The notes beneath the pieces are model-generated. The model did no database searches and was not told where the DNA came from. It saw nothing but the letters and a program-made list of their open reading frames with translations. 24,324 nt of DNA from a virus: the UHGV virus genome UHGV-0175638. The stretch is one strand, 5' to 3'. Both the position numbers and the translations under genes were made by a program. This document shows, piece after piece, positions 1 through 21,376 of this stretch (its first letter is position 1; every line of letters starts with the position of its first letter).

Positions 1-66
1 CTATCGCGCGAGGAGATTTTGAGGATGGTTGAGAGGGTTGCAGGGTAGTAGATAAGTTTTAGATAA

Positions 67-92
67 CAAAAAACCCATTTATGTAAACGGGT
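67..92 (-). terminator. Putative rho-independent terminator downstream of the 110-aa gene
   Basis: Imperfect hairpin ACCCATTTA/TAAACGGGT at 73-92; on the minus strand it is followed by a T-run (plus-strand A-run 67-72). Confidence 0.3.
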
Positions 93-227
93 TAATGAAA
101 ACAATAAGTTAGAGTAAAAACAATAAGTTGGGTTGGTGGTCAGTGGTGGTTATTACGGGGTAATGCCAACCGCTGCCGCCACTTTGTCGCCATTTGGAAG
201 AACCCGGTTGTGCTGCCAATTTGCATG

Positions 228-560
228 CTAACGGATAGAACCATCAGGATATAAGTACACGCCACCCTCTAGATACATTGGCTCACCATCTTCAACTGCA
301 ATATCTTGATAAAGTTCAGCCAGTTCATTAGATTCATTTTTTACAAGATTATATGTATCAACATCATACCCAAGGATTTTTAACTCATCATCTGAGGTTG
401 CTCCTTGTTTTTGCTTAAGCGCAACAATATCAAAAATCCACTTTTTGCCATCTTTAACGTAGTACGCCCCAGAATCATAACCACGATCGTCAAGTACTTT
501 TTCAAATCCCATCGATAATGCTTTTTTGACAGTATGTTTTTTTACGGTAATGATAGCCAT
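228..560 (-). CDS. Hypothetical protein, 110 aa, AT-rich, beyond the integrase end
   Basis: Intact ORF with ATG at 560-558; AT-rich relative to the phage core; no motif I recognise. Confidence 0.5.
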   Translation of the reverse strand: MAIITVKKHTVKKALSMGFEKVLDDRGYDSGAYYVKDGKKWIFDIVALKQKQGATSDDELKILGYDVDTYNLVKNESNELAELYQDIAVEDGEPMYLEGGVYLYPDGSIR

Positions 561-668
561 GTAATCTCTTAATATATTGAATAAAAGTGAACTTATATAC
601 TGATAAAAGTTTACTCTGACGCAATTAACTCAGCTAGTGGGGGATGATGTTATTTTTGCACCAGTAGA

Positions 669-5431: not shown

Positions 5432-7842
5432 GTCATGACGATATGAACAATTGCAGCGGCTTTAACGAGGCCGCCGCAGCATTTTCATGGAACGGCTCGA
5501 AAAAGGCCATTAACCCTTATCTGGACCCGGCGGAAGTTGCGCCGGAGTCTGCACTTTCAAACCTGATCACTCTGTACGCTGCCGATAACGAGCAGGAGCA
5601 ACTGCGCCGCGAGGCACTGAGTGAGCAGGTCTGGGAGCGTTATTTCTTTAATGAATCCCGTGATCCTGTCCAGCGCGAAATGGAGCAGGATAAGCTCATT
5701 AGCCGGGCAAAGCTGGCGCATGAGCAGCAGCGTTTTAATCCGGACATGGTCATTCTGGCGGACGTAAACGCCCAGCCTTCCCATATCAGCAAGCCGCTGA
5801 TGCAACGTATTGAATACTTCAGCAGCCTGGGCAGGCCAAAGGCTTATTCCCGCTATTTGCGTGAGACGATTAAGCCATGTCTGGAGCGACTGGATTGTGT
5901 ACGTGACAGTCAGCTATCTGTTTCTTTCCGTTTTATGGCAAGCCATCAAGGGCTGGAGGGGCTGCTGATCCTGCCTGAAATGAGCCAGGATCAGGTGAAA
6001 CGCCTGTCCACCCTGGTAGCAGCGCATATGAGCATGTGTCTTGAGGACGCTTGTGGTGATTTGTATGCCACCGATGACGTTAAGCCAGAAGAAATCCGCA
6101 AGACATGGGAAAAGGTGGCAGCGGAAACCCTGCGTCTGGATGTTATCCCGCCTGCGTTTGAGAAACTTCGTCGGAAAAGAAACCGCCGCAAACCAGTGCC
6201 CTATGAACTCATCCCGGGTTCGCTGGCGCGTATGTTGTGTGCCGACTGGTGGTATCGGAAATTATGGAAGATGCGTTGCGAATGGCGGGAAGAGCAGTTG
6301 CGTGCTGTCTGCCTGGTCAGCAAAAAAGCATCCCCCTATGTCAGCTATGAAGCCGTGATGCATAAACGTGAGCAGCGCCGTAAGTCGCTGGAGTTTTTTC
6401 GTTCTCATGAACTGGTGAACGAAGACGGCGACACGCTGGATATGGAAGATGTGGTAAACGCCAGCAGCAGCAACCCGGCGCATCGCCGCAATGAGATGAT
6501 GGCCTGTGTTAAAGGTCTGGAGCTTATCGCGGAAATGCGCAGTGACTGTGCCGTTTTCTACACTATCACCTGTCCGTCGCGTTTCCATTCCACGCTCAAT
6601 AACGGCAGACCAAACCCGACCTGGACAAACGCGACGGTAAGACAAAGTAGCGATTATCTGGTCGGCATGTTTGCTGCATTTCGTAAGGCTATGCATAAAG
6701 CCGAGTTGCGCTGGTATGGCGTGCGGGTAGCTGAGCCGCATCATGACGGTACTGTGCACTGGCATCTCATGTGTTTCATGCGTAAAAAAGACCGCCGCGC
6801 CATCACTGCATTACTGCGTAAGTTTGCCATCCGTGAAGACCGCGAGGAGCTGGGCAATAACACGGGACCACGCTTTAAGTCTGAGCTGATAAACCCGCGC
6901 AAAGGTACGCCAACAAGCTACATCGCGAAATACATCAGTAAGAACATTGACGGGCGTGGTCTGGCTGGGGAGATCAGCAAGGAAACGGGTAAATCCCTGC
7001 GTGATAACGCTGAATACGTTAATGCCTGGGCGTCTCTGCATCGTGTTCAGCAATTCCGCTTCTTTGGCATTCCGGGGCGTCAGGCTTACCGTGAACTGCG
7101 ATTGCTGGCTGGTCAGGCGGCAAGGCAACAGGGTGACAAAAAAGCAGGTGCGCCGGTACTGGATAACCCGCGCCTTGATGCCATTCTGGCTGCTGCTGAT
7201 GCTGGTTGTTTTGCCACCTATATCATGAAGCAGGGCGGCGTACTGGTTCCCCGTAAATATCACCTCATCAGAACCGCTTATGAAATCAACGAAGAGCCAA
7301 CCGCCTATGGCGATCACGGTATTCGTATTTATGGCATCTGGTCACCCATTGCAGAGGGCAAGATCTGCACTCATGCGGTGAAGTGGAAAATGGTTCGTAA
7401 GGCCGTTGACGTTCAGGAGGCGGCAGCCGACCAGGGCGCTTGCGCCCCTTGGACTCGTGGCAATAACTGTCCCCTTGCTGAAAATTTGTACCAACAAGGG
7501 AAAGACAAATCAGCTGATGGGGATACCAGAACGGATATCACCCGTATGGATGACAAGGAGTTGCACGATTACCTGCACAGTATGAACAAAAAAGAGCGCC
7601 GGGAACTGGCTGTAAGGTTACGCCTGGTGAAACCGAAACGGCGTAGAGACTACAAACAGCGAATTACAGACCATCAACGACAGCAGCTCGTCTATGAACT
7701 GAAGTCCAGAGGATTTGATGGCAGCGAGAAAGAGGTCGATTTACTCCTTCGCGGCGGCAGCATTCCGTCAGGAGCAGGCCTGCGTATCTTCTATCGGAAC
7801 CAGCGTTTGCAGGAAGATGATAAGTGGCGGAACCTGTATTAA
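5428..7842 (+). CDS. A: Rolling-circle replication initiation protein (P2 gpA / 186 A family)
   Basis: About 804 aa; HUH-type motif [10 protein letters not shown]; start ATG 5428 overlaps the dam stop (ATGA), implying translational coupling; size and position match gene A. Confidence 0.85.
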
Positions 7843-8769: not shown

Positions 8770-9939
8770 GTGATGATAAGTTTAGAAAAATTTCAAATTT
8801 CCAATTTTTGGGGTTCGAAAAATATTACTTTAGATTTTCATAGTAAGTTTGTGATCCTAACAGGACACAATGGCTCAGGTAAATCTACCATCTTGGAGAT
8901 TCTACATGATTCATTTAGTCTTATGCATGACGGGGAAGTTCAAACTATTCATGAGTCTTGGGCTAGTGAGCTAAATTTTAGCGATGAAAGTTTAGCTAGG
9001 AGCTATTTTTTAGGTGACGATATTGAATTGCAGGATGCTTTAAAAAGAAGAATAGAAAACAGTGCAAAAAAAACTATTAAACTTGATATTTTTAACTCAT
9101 TTGATTTCATAAATAAAACAATAAATAATTACACAAAGAAAAAAAATAAAGATTTTTTAGTTAAGAAAGATTTCTCCTCATCATTAAAGAAAAAATCTTT
9201 TATGACTATGCAGTATCATCCAACAAAAGATGATATGAAATTTCCTAAAACTATTTTCTTTAAAGATAGCCGAGTCCTCTATAACACGGTTAGCGATGAA
9301 GTTAAAGAAGTTAACGACTTAGATATATTCAACGAAGCAGACAGCATTAACAAGACACTTTACTTACTAATGAGTTCTTTCATTATTGAGGAGTCTAAGA
9401 ATAAAAAGCTGAAGTTCAAAGATAAAAATGAATTAAAAAAGATGTTTATAAATGAATTAAAATCAGAACAAGCTTTTATGGGGGAGCTAAAAACGTCTGA
9501 TGAACAGTTAATGTCAAAGCTTGAAAGTTTGGTTGATAGAGTGTTTTTAAAAGAAATAAAAAATAATTCGTGGGGTGGGGGGCTTTTTTCAGCAATAAAT
9601 GAATTCCTAAAGAAAACAAAAAGAAGTGTGACTAGAGATGAAAAAGGTTTCATTGCTTTTAAACTTAACAATGGAAGTATTATAAAGTGGTATAATTTTT
9701 CAAGAGGTGAGAAAACTCTTCTTGTTCTTTTGTTAAGTGTTTTTTTGAATAAAGATAAAGATGTTATTTTTATTTTGGATGAACCAGATTTATCATTACA
9801 CATTGAGTGGCAGGAATTATTATTACCTAATTTGTCGCGTTTAGCTCCGGAGAGACAGTTTATATTATCTACACATTCCCCTGCTCTTGTAGGTAATATC
9901 GAAGAGCAATACTTAAATATTGCTGCTATTACGGAGTGA
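8770..9939 (+). CDS. ABC/SMC-like P-loop ATPase (389 aa), first gene of the AT-rich cargo cassette; candidate defence ATPase (AriA/OLD-ATPase-like)
   Basis: Walker A GHNGSGKST; signature-like FSRGEKTLL; Walker B VIFILDEPDLSLH; H-loop LSTHSP; long Lys/Asn-rich insert between Walker A and B; strongly AT-rich; ATG at 8773 preceded by AGGGAAG. Confidence 0.75.
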   Translation: MMISLEKFQISNFWGSKNITLDFHSKFVILTGHNGSGKSTILEILHDSFSLMHDGEVQTIHESWASELNFSDESLARSYFLGDDIELQDALKRRIENSAKKTIKLDIFNSFDFINKTINNYTKKKNKDFLVKKDFSSSLKKKSFMTMQYHPTKDDMKFPKTIFFKDSRVLYNTVSDEVKEVNDLDIFNEADSINKTLYLLMSSFIIEESKNKKLKFKDKNELKKMFINELKSEQAFMGELKTSDEQLMSKLESLVDRVFLKEIKNNSWGGGLFSAINEFLKKTKRSVTRDEKGFIAFKLNNGSIIKWYNFSRGEKTLLVLLLSVFLNKDKDVIFILDEPDLSLHIEWQELLLPNLSRLAPERQFILSTHSPALVGNIEEQYLNIAAITE

Positions 9940-9945
9940 GTTATT

Positions 9946-10983
9946 ATGGATGTTAATTCTCTCGGGTTCAAATCTCAGTCATCTTATTACAAAAAGTCAT
10001 CTATTTTTTTGGGTGAGAATCAACCAAGATGGGTTGCTGTCTGGGTCGAATCAGATGATGATAAAAAACTATGGTTTCCAGTGTTGAAGCATTCATATAA
10101 AAAAATAAACTTTAAATTTCATATTGCCTCCCTGCATAAGTTTAAAGATGGAAAGATATCTGATGGATGTTCAAGAATTTTTGCAAAAATTAAGAGCGGT
10201 GAAATTGAACTAGGAAGTTCCACAATTGCTTGCTTAGATAGCGATTACAGCTATATATCAGGTAACTATGCTTGCAAGCAAAAGGAATTATTGGAATCAC
10301 CTCATGTTTTTCAAACATATGTCCATTCTAAGGAGAATATATATGTTCACCCGATTGGAATTATTCAACTTTTTGAGCGTGCTTTAGGTGAAGACTTGGA
10401 GCAGTTAGGTATAAATGTAGAATGTTTTACTGAAAAATTATCCATCTCAATATATGAATATCTTGTAAAGTTGATATCGCTCTATCGCCTAAATGATCTA
10501 AAAGCATTCGATCTATATCATAAACAGTTCATGGATAATTTCAAAACAATTATGAATGAGATGAAATTACCAGAGGATCTCTCGTCTGATTATGAAAGCC
10601 TTTTGAAGGCGAAGCTTACTGATTTTGATACGGAACTTACACAGCATATAAAAAGCACTCATGGAATAAGTGTGATTGATGATACAAATCAAAGATTTAG
10701 AGAGATTGAAGTTAATCCGTCTGATTCATTGAACTTTATACGTGGCCATGATTTGTATCCTGTAATGATGAAAATATATAAGAGTATAGATCAGTATGTT
10801 TTCAAAGTTAAACGTGATCAATATAATCAAGAACACATATCTGATGAGATAAGGCAAAAGAAACAGAGGGAGATGGGTAATAAACGTGTGGATATTGAAG
10901 ACTTAATATGTACCCGGGGTGATGTTAAGGATAATCAATATTTCTCACGCACCATTAAGAAGCTTAATACATTGTTTGCATAG
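9946..10983 (+). CDS. Partner protein (345 aa) with Toprim-like acidic motifs (DUF4435/OLD-nuclease-like); candidate effector
   Basis: Starts 6 nt after the ATPase stop with GGAG upstream (operon); N-terminal VAVWVESDDDKK (Toprim-like E...D) and ACLDSDYSY (DxD-like); AT-rich. Fold assignment is inference from motifs only. Confidence 0.6.
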   Translation: MDVNSLGFKSQSSYYKKSSIFLGENQPRWVAVWVESDDDKKLWFPVLKHSYKKINFKFHIASLHKFKDGKISDGCSRIFAKIKSGEIELGSSTIACLDSDYSYISGNYACKQKELLESPHVFQTYVHSKENIYVHPIGIIQLFERALGEDLEQLGINVECFTEKLSISIYEYLVKLISLYRLNDLKAFDLYHKQFMDNFKTIMNEMKLPEDLSSDYESLLKAKLTDFDTELTQHIKSTHGISVIDDTNQRFREIEVNPSDSLNFIRGHDLYPVMMKIYKSIDQYVFKVKRDQYNQEHISDEIRQKKQREMGNKRVDIEDLICTRGDVKDNQYFSRTIKKLNTLFA

Positions 10984-13905: not shown

Positions 13906-13923
13906 TGTGTGGTTGTCGGTACA
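13906..13923 (+). promoter_or_regulatory. Late-promoter activator site (TGT-N12-ACA dyad, Ogr/B-type) in the P/O divergent region
   Basis: TGTGTGGTTGTCGGTACA, centred about 87 nt upstream of the O ATG; a near-identical 18-mer occurs upstream of V. Confidence 0.55.
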
Positions 13924-18973: not shown

Positions 18974-19370
18974 TAAAGCAGTGCCTTATGTCCGCAATAA
19001 CCCGGACAAACTGCATCTGTTTGTGGATAACGGTTCGCTGGTTGCCACGGGGACCAGCTCCATGTCGTGGGAGTACCGTTACACCCTGAACGCAGTGATT
19101 GAGGATTTCAGCGGCGACCAGAATCTGCTGATGGCCCCGGTTTTGCTGTGGCTGCGGGATAACCAGCCCGATGCCATCAATAACCCGGCGTTACGGGAAA
19201 AACTATTCACCTTTGAGGTGGATATTCTGCGCAACGATGTCTGTGATATCAGCCTGAACCTGCAACTGACGGAGCGTGTGCTGGTCAGTACTGACGGCAG
19301 TGTGTCGAGCGTTGAAGCTATAGCGGAACCTGATGAACCTGAAGAAATGTGGACGGTGAAACGTGGCTGA
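18939..19370 (+). CDS. R: Tail completion protein R (P2 gpR family)
   Basis: Likely GTG start at 18939 preceded by AGGAG (track ORF starts at TTG 18918); resembles P2 R from memory. Confidence 0.75.
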   Translation: MNKPQSLRHALNKAVPYVRNNPDKLHLFVDNGSLVATGTSSMSWEYRYTLNAVIEDFSGDQNLLMAPVLLWLRDNQPDAINNPALREKLFTFEVDILRNDVCDISLNLQLTERVLVSTDGSVSSVEAIAEPDEPEEMWTVKRG

Positions 19371-19809
19371 ATTGCAGAAGGTGGACGACTGGCTGAGTGC
19401 CTTGCTGGCGAATCTGGAGCCAGCCGCAAGAAGCCGCATGATGCGCCAGCTGGCGCAGGAACTGCGCCGGACACAGCAGCAGAACATCAGGATGCAGCGC
19501 AATCCAGATGGCAGCAGTTATGAGCCGCGACGGGTAACAGCACGCAGCAAAAAGGGGCGCATCAAACGTCAGATGTTTACAAAGCTGCGCACCACAAAAT
19601 ACCTGAAAACTGCCGCCAGCGCCGATTCTGCCAGCGTGCAGTTTGAAGGTAAGGTGCAGCGCATTGCCCGCGTTCATCACTACGGCCTGCGTGATCGCAT
19701 CAGTCGAAGAGGACCGGAGGTCCGTTACGCAGAGCGTCGTCTCCTAGGCGTAAATGATGATGTGGAAACTGTCATTCAGGATGCTTTGCTAAATTGGTTA
19801 CAGAGATAA
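19363..19809 (+). CDS. S: Tail completion protein S (P2 gpS family)
   Basis: 148 aa; start overlaps the R stop; conserved order. Confidence 0.75.
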   Translation: MAELQKVDDWLSALLANLEPAARSRMMRQLAQELRRTQQQNIRMQRNPDGSSYEPRRVTARSKKGRIKRQMFTKLRTTKYLKTAASADSASVQFEGKVQRIARVHHYGLRDRISRRGPEVRYAERRLLGVNDDVETVIQDALLNWLQR

Positions 19810-19835
19810 ATAAAACCACATTTATAAAATTTAGT

Positions 19836-20750
19836 TTACTTTTTACTGATAAATGGATTCCTATCAATCCATGAGTCCCAGTTTATATAATTGTCATCAA
19901 ATCCTATGAATTTCATTAGTACAAGTGGCACCAGTAAATTCAAATTTGATGAGTAATCTTGAATTTCAATTTTGCCATCTGAGTTTTTTTCATCAAGATA
20001 GGCAATGTATTTACCATTGTGGAACAGCGAGTGACGGAGTTTGCAGTAATGCATAATGTTTCTTTGAGCTAATGTATGTCCTGTTTTTTCGACATTAAAA
20101 CCATATTCTTTTAAAACCTGAGTGATTATTTGTGGTGTTTTGGCAGGGGAGTAGTCATTTTTAATAAATCTGCAAAGTGCTTCTAGTGCCGAGAATAATA
20201 AATAATATCTGACGTCGATATAATTTATTGAGTCGCGGAAAGCTAGCATTGATTTAAAAAATGATGTTCTAAAGGCATCTTGTTTTAGCATGGCTTTACT
20301 ATTTAGTTTTTCCATGGCTAAGCAAATAAATTTTTCTCGGCTGTTTGGTGCAAAATAATCTTCCATGATGATAATGCCCGCACCCTTATCTCTTTTTTTG
20401 TCAAGCTTTTTGGGTAGAGATGGTTTGAAATTGAAAGGGGTTTCATCATTTTCAAGTTCTCCTGAAATGATTACATTTTTTTGTTCAATAAAACTAAGAA
20501 CTGCTTGTAAATCAAAAATAAGCTGCTGTTGAGTGGCGTAGTTATTCGAGTTTGGTTTGAAAAAACCAGTGAGGATGTACCTATCATTAGCCCAGCCATT
20601 TTTTTTTAACTCACTCCATGAACTGAAAATAGGAGTTAACTCACCACCGTCAAATGTGATTTTTTTAGTGAAATTAAATCCATAAATTGCGATTTGTGTC
20701 ATCTTAAATACCTTAGAAATTGTTTCTCTTTTGTGTGGTTCTCCATACAT
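19836..20750 (-). CDS. AT-rich hypothetical protein (288-304 aa) on the opposite strand inside the late region; candidate accessory/defence gene
   Basis: Long intact antisense ORF between S and V (position of P2 orf30); markedly AT-rich; alternative start ATG at 20702; C-terminal R-x4-H motif (LRHSLFH). Confidence 0.65.
   Translation of the reverse strand: MYGEPHKRETISKVFKMTQIAIYGFNFTKKITFDGGELTPIFSSWSELKKNGWANDRYILTGFFKPNSNNYATQQQLIFDLQAVLSFIEQKNVIISGELENDETPFNFKPSLPKKLDKKRDKGAGIIIMEDYFAPNSREKFICLAMEKLNSKAMLKQDAFRTSFFKSMLAFRDSINYIDVRYYLLFSALEALCRFIKNDYSPAKTPQIITQVLKEYGFNVEKTGHTLAQRNIMHYCKLRHSLFHNGKYIAYLDEKNSDGKIEIQDYSSNLNLLVPLVLMKFIGFDDNYINWDSWIDRNPFISKK
20732..20749 (+). promoter_or_regulatory. 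Late-promoter activator site (TGT-N12-ACA dyad) upstream of V
   Basis: TGTGTGGTTCTCCATACA, 14 of 18 identical to the dyad at 13906-13923; about 57 nt upstream of the V ATG; overlaps the 5' extension of the antisense ORF. Confidence 0.5.
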
Positions 20751-20797
20751 ACGCTCTGTATTACATCACTCTACCCGGTTGTGCAAGGATCGCTCTC

Positions 20798-21376
20798 ATG
20801 AATGCACAACTGACTGAAATCATGCGCCTTATCACCAACCTGATCCGCACTGGTGTAGTCACCGAGGTGGACCGGGAGAACTGGCTTTGCCGGGTGAAAA
20901 CGGGCGACCTTGAAACCAACTGGATTAACTGGCTGACACTGCGCGCGGGCAAATCGCGCACCTGGTGGAAACCGTCTGTGGGCGAGCAGGTTGTGCTGTT
21001 CAGCCTGGGTGGCAATCTGGAAACCGCCTTTGCGTTGCCCGCCATCTATTCGAATCAGTTCGCACCGCCGTCAACGTCGGCGGAAGCCTGCGTGACAGAA
21101 CATCCTGATGGTGGCTGGTTTGAATACGAACCAGCCACCGGGCGCTGGTATGTCAGGGGCATCAAATCCATGGTCATTGAGGCTGCCGACAACATCACCC
21201 TGAAAACCAGTGAGTTTGTGCTGGAGGCTGACCGCACGCGTATTAACAGTGAAGTGGTGATCAATGGTGGCGTTACCCAGGGCGGCGGTGCAATGAGTTC
21301 TAACGGGATCGTGGTTGATGCGCATCAGCATACTGGCGTCCTGAAAGGCGGCGACACAACCGGAGGCCCGGTATGA
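20798..21376 (+). CDS. V: Baseplate spike/assembly protein V (P2 gpV family)
   Basis: ATG at 20798 preceded by AAGGA (track ORF starts at 20720); N-terminus resembles P2 V from memory. Confidence 0.8.
   Translation: MNAQLTEIMRLITNLIRTGVVTEVDRENWLCRVKTGDLETNWINWLTLRAGKSRTWWKPSVGEQVVLFSLGGNLETAFALPAIYSNQFAPPSTSAEACVTEHPDGGWFEYEPATGRWYVRGIKSMVIEAADNITLKTSEFVLEADRTRINSEVVINGGVTQGGGAMSSNGIVVDAHQHTGVLKGGDTTGGPV

Follow-up and report, generated by a model that had tools for sequence, protein, structure and literature searches.

A candidate solo HEPN ribonuclease encoded by an exchangeable cargo gene between genes S and V of a P2-like prophage

The sequence UHGV virus genome UHGV-0175638 (24,324 nucleotides; this whole stretch is referred to below as the window) represents a P2-like (Peduoviridae) prophage, in which a single long open reading frame (ORF) lies on the minus strand between gene S, for tail completion, and gene V, for baseplate assembly. 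The question raised by this locus is what a gene that runs antisense to the late genes, and differs so clearly from them in composition, does for the prophage or for the lysogen that carries it. Our analysis indicates that the product of this ORF (named here the cargo gene) very probably adopts a HEPN fold with a ribonuclease (RNase)-type active site. The reading that we prefer, with a probability of roughly 0.6, is that the cargo gene encodes a self-contained HEPN RNase that serves as a prophage-borne abortive-infection defence of the lysogen.

The original prediction had drawn attention to an R-x4-H motif in the C-terminal half of the protein (LRHSLFH) and compared it with HEPN/Abi-type RNases, a likeness which it graded as weak evidence. 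This heptapeptide occupies residues 222-228 (window 20019-20039; residue numbers refer throughout to the 288-aa form of the protein), and its conservation was examined in an alignment of 55 divergent family members, which share 18-58% identity with the query and have a mean column identity of 24%. The best-conserved polar positions were E174, R223 and H228, each of them retained in 54 of the 55 sequences, and when 33 C-terminal domains were aligned (A4), E, R and H were the sole invariant columns. The residue directly following the arginine (position 224) is N in 49 members, H in three (the window protein itself has H) and D in two, while position 178 is occupied by R in 48 members and by K in five. 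The codons and the alignment thus define two motifs on the minus strand: E174-A-L-C-R178, an Ex3[KR] motif of helix H1 (20169..20183), and R223-H-S-L-F-H228, the putative catalytic Rx4H motif of helix H3 (20019..20036).

According to a survey of HEPN proteins (PMC3710099), the active site of these domains is characterised by an Rx4-6H motif, a polar residue (N, D or H) right after the arginine and an upstream acidic residue, which is usually part of an Ex3[KR] motif; the core is a four-helix up-down bundle composed of two alpha-hairpins, often with inserts, and domains that keep the motif have been argued to be metal-independent RNases. A model of the window protein generated by AlphaFold2 with the family alignment (predicted local distance difference test, pLDDT, 89.8; predicted template modelling score, pTM, 0.90) contains a four-helix core of this kind at residues 162-265 (19908..20219, minus strand), built of H1 (162-181), H2 (186-199), H3 (216-229) and H4 (251-265), with a beta-hairpin insert (233-246). 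The features of HEPN membership found in this protein are therefore the four-helix core, the Rx4-6H motif placed on H3, the polar residue that follows the arginine and the upstream Ex3[KR]. The HEPN part of the original suggestion was consequently strengthened, whereas membership of Abi_2 of Pfam, or of any other named Abi family, was rejected, as searches of Pfam, NCBIfam and PADLOC with the protein gave no match at E up to 10.

The remainder of the protein is organised around this core. In the predicted model, two linker helices (residues 121-156; 20235..20342, minus strand) pack on the HEPN bundle, and they are preceded by an N-terminal alpha/beta domain (residues 1-105; 20388..20702, minus strand) with the conserved residues Y7, G8, P24, F71 and V77. 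No recognisable family and no conserved polar residues of a catalytic type were found in the N-terminal domain; we take it to be non-catalytic because its conserved residues are structural, and propose a role in sensing or oligomerisation. The alignment also revealed a conserved, family-specific C-terminal tail (residues 266-288; 19839..19907, minus strand) with the consensus GFDDxxINWxxWxDRxPF.

The distribution of homologues shows that this is a real and conserved gene. The protein matches PHROG 4373 over all of the profile (positions 1-283 of 283, E 4.9e-142); this PHROG, which has no annotated function, was the only match. A word-indexed search yielded 78 homologue clusters, all of them annotated as hypothetical, from Salmonella, E. 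coli, Klebsiella, Pantoea, Enterobacter, Vibrio, Shewanella, Halomonas and Acinetobacter. When 1.84 billion representatives were searched exhaustively with a profile (E up to 1e-3), only 194 matches were obtained, and nearly all full-length members have about 265-320 aa and align from end to end; this is therefore a small family with one fixed two-domain architecture. The cluster of sequences 99% identical to the cargo protein comprises 306 members, found on at least 1000 contigs.

The genomic contexts of the family are diverse. More divergent alleles occupy the same antisense position between S and V in the Klebsiella phage ST437-OXA245phi4.1 (Gegevirus; 57% identity) and in the Salmonella phage RE-2010 (Felsduovirus; 35% identity). 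Distant homologues in Halomonas and Vibrio are solitary genes adjoining integrases, one in Acinetobacter is placed between the housekeeping genes LysE and HemN, and one in Klebsiella adjoins a resolvase. A subfamily of about 315 aa from pig-gut metagenomes (L021-L024, gene 6001-6948) lies in a dense defence island, together with HsdR of a type I restriction-modification system, RelB/YafQ, two AAA_14-DUF4143 ATPases, a Schlafen/AlbA_2-HATPase protein, DUF1016 and an MmeI-type restriction-modification enzyme. No neighbouring gene recurred across the contexts of the family, and the gene is therefore a stand-alone unit.

Comparison of the S-V junction in related prophages revealed an exchangeable cargo site. 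Of 5426 complete E. coli genomes, 1056 contain sequences homologous to the flanks, but just 23 have the cargo gene. In an evenly spaced sample of 60 of these flank matches, 31 junctions were empty, two carried the cargo gene, 19 carried other cargo and eight were partial matches; at one of the empty junctions (L010) S and V are separated by 68 bp. When the window was compared with eight E. coli prophages with an empty junction or other cargo, homology always resumed at the V ATG (20796-20798), while the left breakpoints were scattered over the last 10-110 nt of S (19700-19800). This pattern indicates that the exchanged module includes, besides the cargo gene, the promoter region of V and the 3' end of S. 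As judged from these sequence comparisons, the cargo gene is horizontally acquired and dispensable, in line with the earlier view of it as an acquired, non-structural gene, which its occurrence in non-phage contexts also supports.

The other cargoes are nearly all single genes, found in either orientation. Three of them match PADLOC candidate single-gene defence families: a co-directional gene for a TIR-domain protein (PDC-S66/SpbK-like), and antisense genes for an FRG-domain protein (PDC-S15, 8.5e-32) and a DUF2971 protein (PDC-S31, 3e-24). The remaining ones encode DUF6216 (antisense, with no PADLOC match), a Sll1717-type P-loop ATPase (co-directional), a small hypothetical protein together with PcfJ (a two-gene cargo), a 384-aa hypothetical protein, and a 301-aa allele which aligns with the cargo gene over the whole region. 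The DUF6216 gene was also noted at the S-V junction of the P2-like prophage in common laboratory strains derived from E. coli B (L015, H78-H80; NEBExpress and others).

If the preferred reading is correct, the protein would be made in the lysogen and would be inactive in its resting state, with no need of a partner gene or antitoxin. The HEPN domains would pair, so that two R223-x4-H228 motifs, aided by E174, could form a composite metal-independent RNase site. An infection cue, either a phage protein or a small molecule, would be sensed by the N-terminal alpha/beta domain, by the C-terminal tail or by both, and the RNase, once released, would attack RNA of the host or the phage; analogy points to mRNA or tRNA anticodon loops as the target. 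Translation would then stop and the infection would be aborted, which is the anti-phage phenotype that we would expect of the lysogen.

A defence function is proposed by analogy with the solo HEPN defences HepS, Tha and ApeA, and the exchangeable junction and the mobile-element and defence-island surroundings of the family also speak for it. ApeA is an abortive-infection tRNA anticodon nuclease, which is activated via a ligand pocket away from the active site, and the cryo-EM study of it locates the catalytic residues of HEPN domains on H3 and reports that ApeA-type HEPN domains have an H3-H4 insertion (bioRxiv 10.64898/2026.01.26.701840). The cargo protein, as predicted by the model, resembles it in being the product of a single gene with a C-terminal HEPN domain, with the motif on H3 and with an H3-H4 insert. 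ApeA is also the only named family which members of the present family touch at the sequence level: HEPN_Apea (Pfam) and Cas13-ApeA (PADLOC) were the only models matched by more than one member, although the matches concerned just three of the 55 sequences and, with a best E of about 0.005, remained below Pfam significance. When nine divergent members were scanned individually for the HEPN_Apea region, none of them was among the three matching ones. The two proteins nevertheless differ considerably. ApeA has about 580 aa, is composed of three mostly helical domains (N-terminal, Mid and a split HEPN of about 335-583) and forms decamers or dodecamers, whereas the cargo protein has 288 aa and two domains, with an unrelated alpha/beta N-terminal domain, and matched neither of the ApeA models.

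HepS (HEPN Solo), encoded by the Salmonella prophage Gifsy-1, has no partner and is inactive at rest; a phage tail-tip protein triggers it, and it then cuts tRNAs in the anticodon loop (PMC13043305). It probably belongs to a different family: HepS is a single-domain, tetrameric protein of a lambdoid prophage with the motif R100-H105, whereas the family of the cargo protein, which matched no PDB chain at the sequence level, has an extra N-terminal domain and a W-rich conserved C-terminal tail. Tha of S. aureus prophages is described as a HEPN anti-phage system activated by tail proteins (PMC11087260). The likeness lies in a prophage-borne HEPN protein and in a putative defence that would have to spare its own prophage; Tha comes from a different host and, by description, from a different family. 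HepT toxins of HEPN/MNT systems (5yep, 7ae2, 8xdj) and minimal HEPN proteins (1wwp, 1jog, 1ylm) served for further comparison, followed by Csm6, AF0298, Cas13h1 and the HEPN domain of sacsin. Unlike HepT, the cargo protein is accompanied by no adjoining MNT antitoxin gene in about ten contexts; it has the motif RxxxxH-N-G rather than Rx4HxY, as well as the added N-terminal domain and the hairpin insert. It also differs from Csm6/Csx1, since no significant CARF match was obtained with the whole protein (Foldseek E 3.3 or worse), only one of the 55 members gave a weak match to a CARF hidden Markov model (HMM), and no CRISPR or cyclic-oligonucleotide context was seen among the examined neighbourhoods.

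Several observations weigh against a HEPN-based defence. The window protein, searched against Pfam, NCBIfam and PADLOC at the permissive threshold given above, hit no HEPN, Abi or defence model. With Foldseek, no significant match was obtained in BFVD or the PDB (best E in the latter, 3.3). Profile searches against PDB sequences, with the full-length alignment and with that of the C-terminal domain, produced chance-level matches only (2p1a at E 0.036, TPR and VPS4 MIT), and the C-terminal profile, run against 5.8 billion proteins at E up to 1, recovered only family members, none of them with a Pfam annotation. A literature search on the family accessions and the PHROG number found no paper that names either. 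As regards the junction, DUF6216, PcfJ, the Sll1717-type ATPase, the hypothetical proteins and P2 Orf30 have no defence annotation, and guilt by location is weak evidence. Consensus scans of the window and of two other alleles found no sigma-70-like leftward promoter upstream of the cargo gene, and a three-allele alignment of the 95-bp region common to the cargo gene and the V promoter (P_V) showed P_V elements only; we therefore infer, rather than observe, expression in the lysogen. Finally, two of the 23 E. coli copies, those of strains 61 and 64, are disrupted by IS1.

Alternatively, the protein might be an active HEPN RNase with another role, such as a self-limiting toxin or addiction function which stabilises the prophage or island, a modulator of host RNA in stress, growth arrest or persistence, or an RNase of the phage's own lytic cycle. 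We consider this unlikely, though it survives better than the other alternatives. An addiction role is opposed by the lack of antitoxin-like or MNT neighbours in any of the contexts, and a lytic one by the fact that most related prophages have no copy of the gene, lytic growth therefore being possible without it. Moreover, both the junction and the neighbourhood of the distant subfamily are rich in defence-type genes, and the characterised prophage-borne solo HEPN proteins are defences.

It is doubtful that the protein has a HEPN fold and no nuclease activity, acting for instance as an adaptor, as an anti-defence factor or as a regulator that binds nucleotides or ligands. There is a precedent in HEPN families which are non-catalytic substrate-binding domains (PMC3710099), the fold scores are modest, and two of the 55 members lack an intact motif: in P0194 H228 is replaced by L, and P0196 has lost E174 and R223 while apparently keeping the histidine. 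These two may be inactivated or repurposed copies. However, non-catalytic HEPN domains have typically lost the Rx4-6H motif (PMC3710099), whereas in this family conservation is highest at E, R and H, a pattern to be expected of catalysis and not of scaffolding.

That the ORF is a passenger which is decaying or unexpressed, and at present functionless, appears very improbable. This idea would accord with the missing promoter, with the five A7-A9 runs of the gene, which are prone to slippage, and with the IS1 insertions. In strain 61 (NZ_CP048326.1, L014, locus 1192-1959) the IS1 element interrupts the 3' part of the gene after nt 720 and has caused an 8-bp target duplication, and the same was found in strain 64; the interrupted gene no longer encodes the last HEPN helix or the conserved tail. 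Against this stand the full-length copies of about 280 aa, conserved at the level of motifs from Enterobacteria to Vibrio, Shewanella, Halomonas, Acinetobacter and gut metagenomes, as well as the large near-identical cluster described above. One further copy, from SCU-485, contains indels which are confined to A/T homopolymer runs, as long-read assembly errors would be; we attribute them to such errors and do not regard this copy as a pseudogene. It could also be noted that an A9 run (at about 20599-20607, gene nt 96-104) and four A7 runs of the cargo gene could be natural slippage sites, judging from the nucleotide sequence.

An accessory role in tail or baseplate morphogenesis, for which only the position between S and V speaks, is effectively refuted: the gene runs antisense to the late genes and is foreign in composition, about half of the close relatives lack it with S and V intact, unrelated genes replace it, no homology to structural proteins was found, and the family also occurs outside phages.

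The cargo gene, read as a candidate defence, is best classed as a good experimental candidate and not as a conceptual surprise, being akin to the prophage-borne solo HEPN abortive-infection defences. If the reading is true, the protein would represent a new and compact (288-aa) family of single-gene HEPN defences whose sensor domain had not been described before. Pfam, NCBIfam and PADLOC have no entry for it, although the near-identical cluster is found on at least 1000 contigs, those of Salmonella and E. coli among them. The protein is small, solitary and confidently predicted, and would therefore be easy to test experimentally. The S-V (orf30) junction, for which roughly one in five complete E. 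coli genomes gave a match, may be a source of single-gene defence candidates, and its cargo includes Orf30 of P2, which has been functionally unexplained since the annotation of the P2 genome.

P2 Orf30 (NP_046770) is a 261-aa protein encoded by a nonessential antisense gene between S and V. The cargo gene shares with it the slot, the antisense orientation, the dispensability and the foreign composition. The position proposed originally, that of P2 orf30, agrees with the P2 reference layout, but homology of the two proteins was rejected (BLASTP E=33; hhalign probability 0.2%), and P2 Orf30 itself matched nothing in Pfam and PADLOC.

The accounts of P2-like hotspots that we consulted centre on the A-Q (old/tin), Z/fun and int-side loci; they also mention, without specifying it further, a hotspot “within the tail genes” that lies downstream of GpL. 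The S-V junction, a site to which little notice has been given, is named in none of them. A broader reading, rather unlikely when all of its parts are taken together, would make S-V a fourth cargo/defence hotspot of P2-like phages, swapped as a module (S 3' end, cargo and V late promoter), with antisense read-through from the O operon silencing the HEPN gene during the phage's own lytic cycle (a built-in avoidance of autoimmunity) and with the N-terminal domain sensing a component of foreign phages. Self-silencing by O-operon read-through is speculative. Such read-through is conceivable because the 26 bp that separate S from the cargo gene showed no hairpin resembling a terminator, and antisense self-silencing would not be general, since the TIR and ATPase cargoes are co-directional.

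E. coli A16 contains a 99.9%-identical stretch, and the annotation of this stretch shows the complete gene order of P2 (int, CI, A, Q, P, O, N, M, L, X, holin, lysozyme, LysB/C, R, S, a hypothetical gene, V, W, J, I, H, G and so on). Gene S (virion morphogenesis/tail completion; 19363..19809, plus strand) is the last gene of the O late operon, and gene V (baseplate assembly; 20798..21376, plus strand) is the one with which the V late operon begins. The reference record of P2 shows S followed by the O-operon terminator, Orf30, an activator binding site and the V transcription start, which coincides with the V ATG. The cargo gene sits in the gap between these two late operons, that is in the P2 orf30 slot. 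It does not interrupt a late operon, as had been supposed, because S closes the O operon, and the V operon has its own Ogr-dependent promoter.

The variable cargo module, delimited by the homology breakpoints, extends from the S stop to the V start (19810..20797, GC content 0.335) and holds the cargo gene and the V late-promoter region. The latter contains the TGT-N12-ACA dyad TGTGTGGTTCTCCATACA (20732..20749, plus strand), the Ogr/late-activator site of the V operon promoter, whose centre precedes the V ATG by about 57 nt. It shares 14 of its 18 positions with the dyad in front of gene O (13906-13923), and is retained at empty and other-cargo junctions as well as in the Klebsiella phage and RE-2010; in the region upstream of V only this dyad and the P_V -10 region are conserved. 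The spacing of about 57 nt between the dyad and the V ATG agrees with the P2 annotation, in which the V start is the transcription start (leaderless V mRNA). An extended -10-like sequence, TGATGTAAT, was noticed on the minus strand at about 20760-20768; it is weak, was found by eye and is not conserved in other alleles, and we do not rely on it.

The antisense ORF itself was confirmed at 19836..20750 (minus strand, 304 aa counted from the first ATG), and its AT-richness, already recognised in the original prediction, is pronounced: the cargo gene has a GC content of 0.332, compared with 0.555 in S and 0.568 in V, and a GC content at third codon positions (GC3) of 0.31, compared with 0.65 in V. 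The convergent stops of S (19807-19809) and of the cargo ORF (19836-19838) leave a gap of 26 bp (19810..19835), exactly as first reported. At the composition of the cargo gene about 7.5% of random codons would be stops, and the chance of an open frame of about 300 codons is near 1e-10; the reading frame is, moreover, conserved across 78 to 194 homologue clusters.

While the 304-aa ORF exists, the protein is probably shorter. The sequence evidence points to Met17 (ATG at 20702) as the true start, which gives a product of 288 aa. This start is preferred because the PHROG 4373 match begins at residue 17 of the 304-aa form, the RefSeq entry WP_001579974.1 corresponds to the 288-aa form, homologues begin at the same Met, and an AAGG Shine-Dalgarno sequence lies 8 nt upstream of this ATG; in addition, the first 16 codons of the longer reading (from the ATG at 20748-20750) overlap the Ogr dyad of the V promoter. 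The preferred coding sequence of the candidate solo HEPN RNase, supported by the ORF, PHROG 4373 (residues 17-301 of the long form), RefSeq and the homologue alignment, is thus 19836..20702 (minus strand, 288 codons and the stop). The 16 extra codons (20703..20750, minus strand) are probably untranslated, and form a 5' leader with the Shine-Dalgarno sequence (AAGG, 20710-20713).

Other parts of the same prophage also contain genes of the accessory type. At its A-Q (old/tin) hotspot we found PARIS, represented by AriA (8770-9939; PADLOC 8.1e-36) and AriB/DUF4435 (9946-10983; 8.5e-19), both on the plus strand and with a GC content of about 0.28-0.33; the prophage therefore carries a known defence system besides the HEPN candidate. 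On the integrase/CI side, stretches of low GC content (0.36-0.41) at window positions 1-600 and 1500-2400 are possibly another cargo locus. The minus-strand ORFs 228-560 and 669-1520 of the window gave no PADLOC match, and a DUF4041 protein is encoded on the integrase/CI side in E. coli A16.

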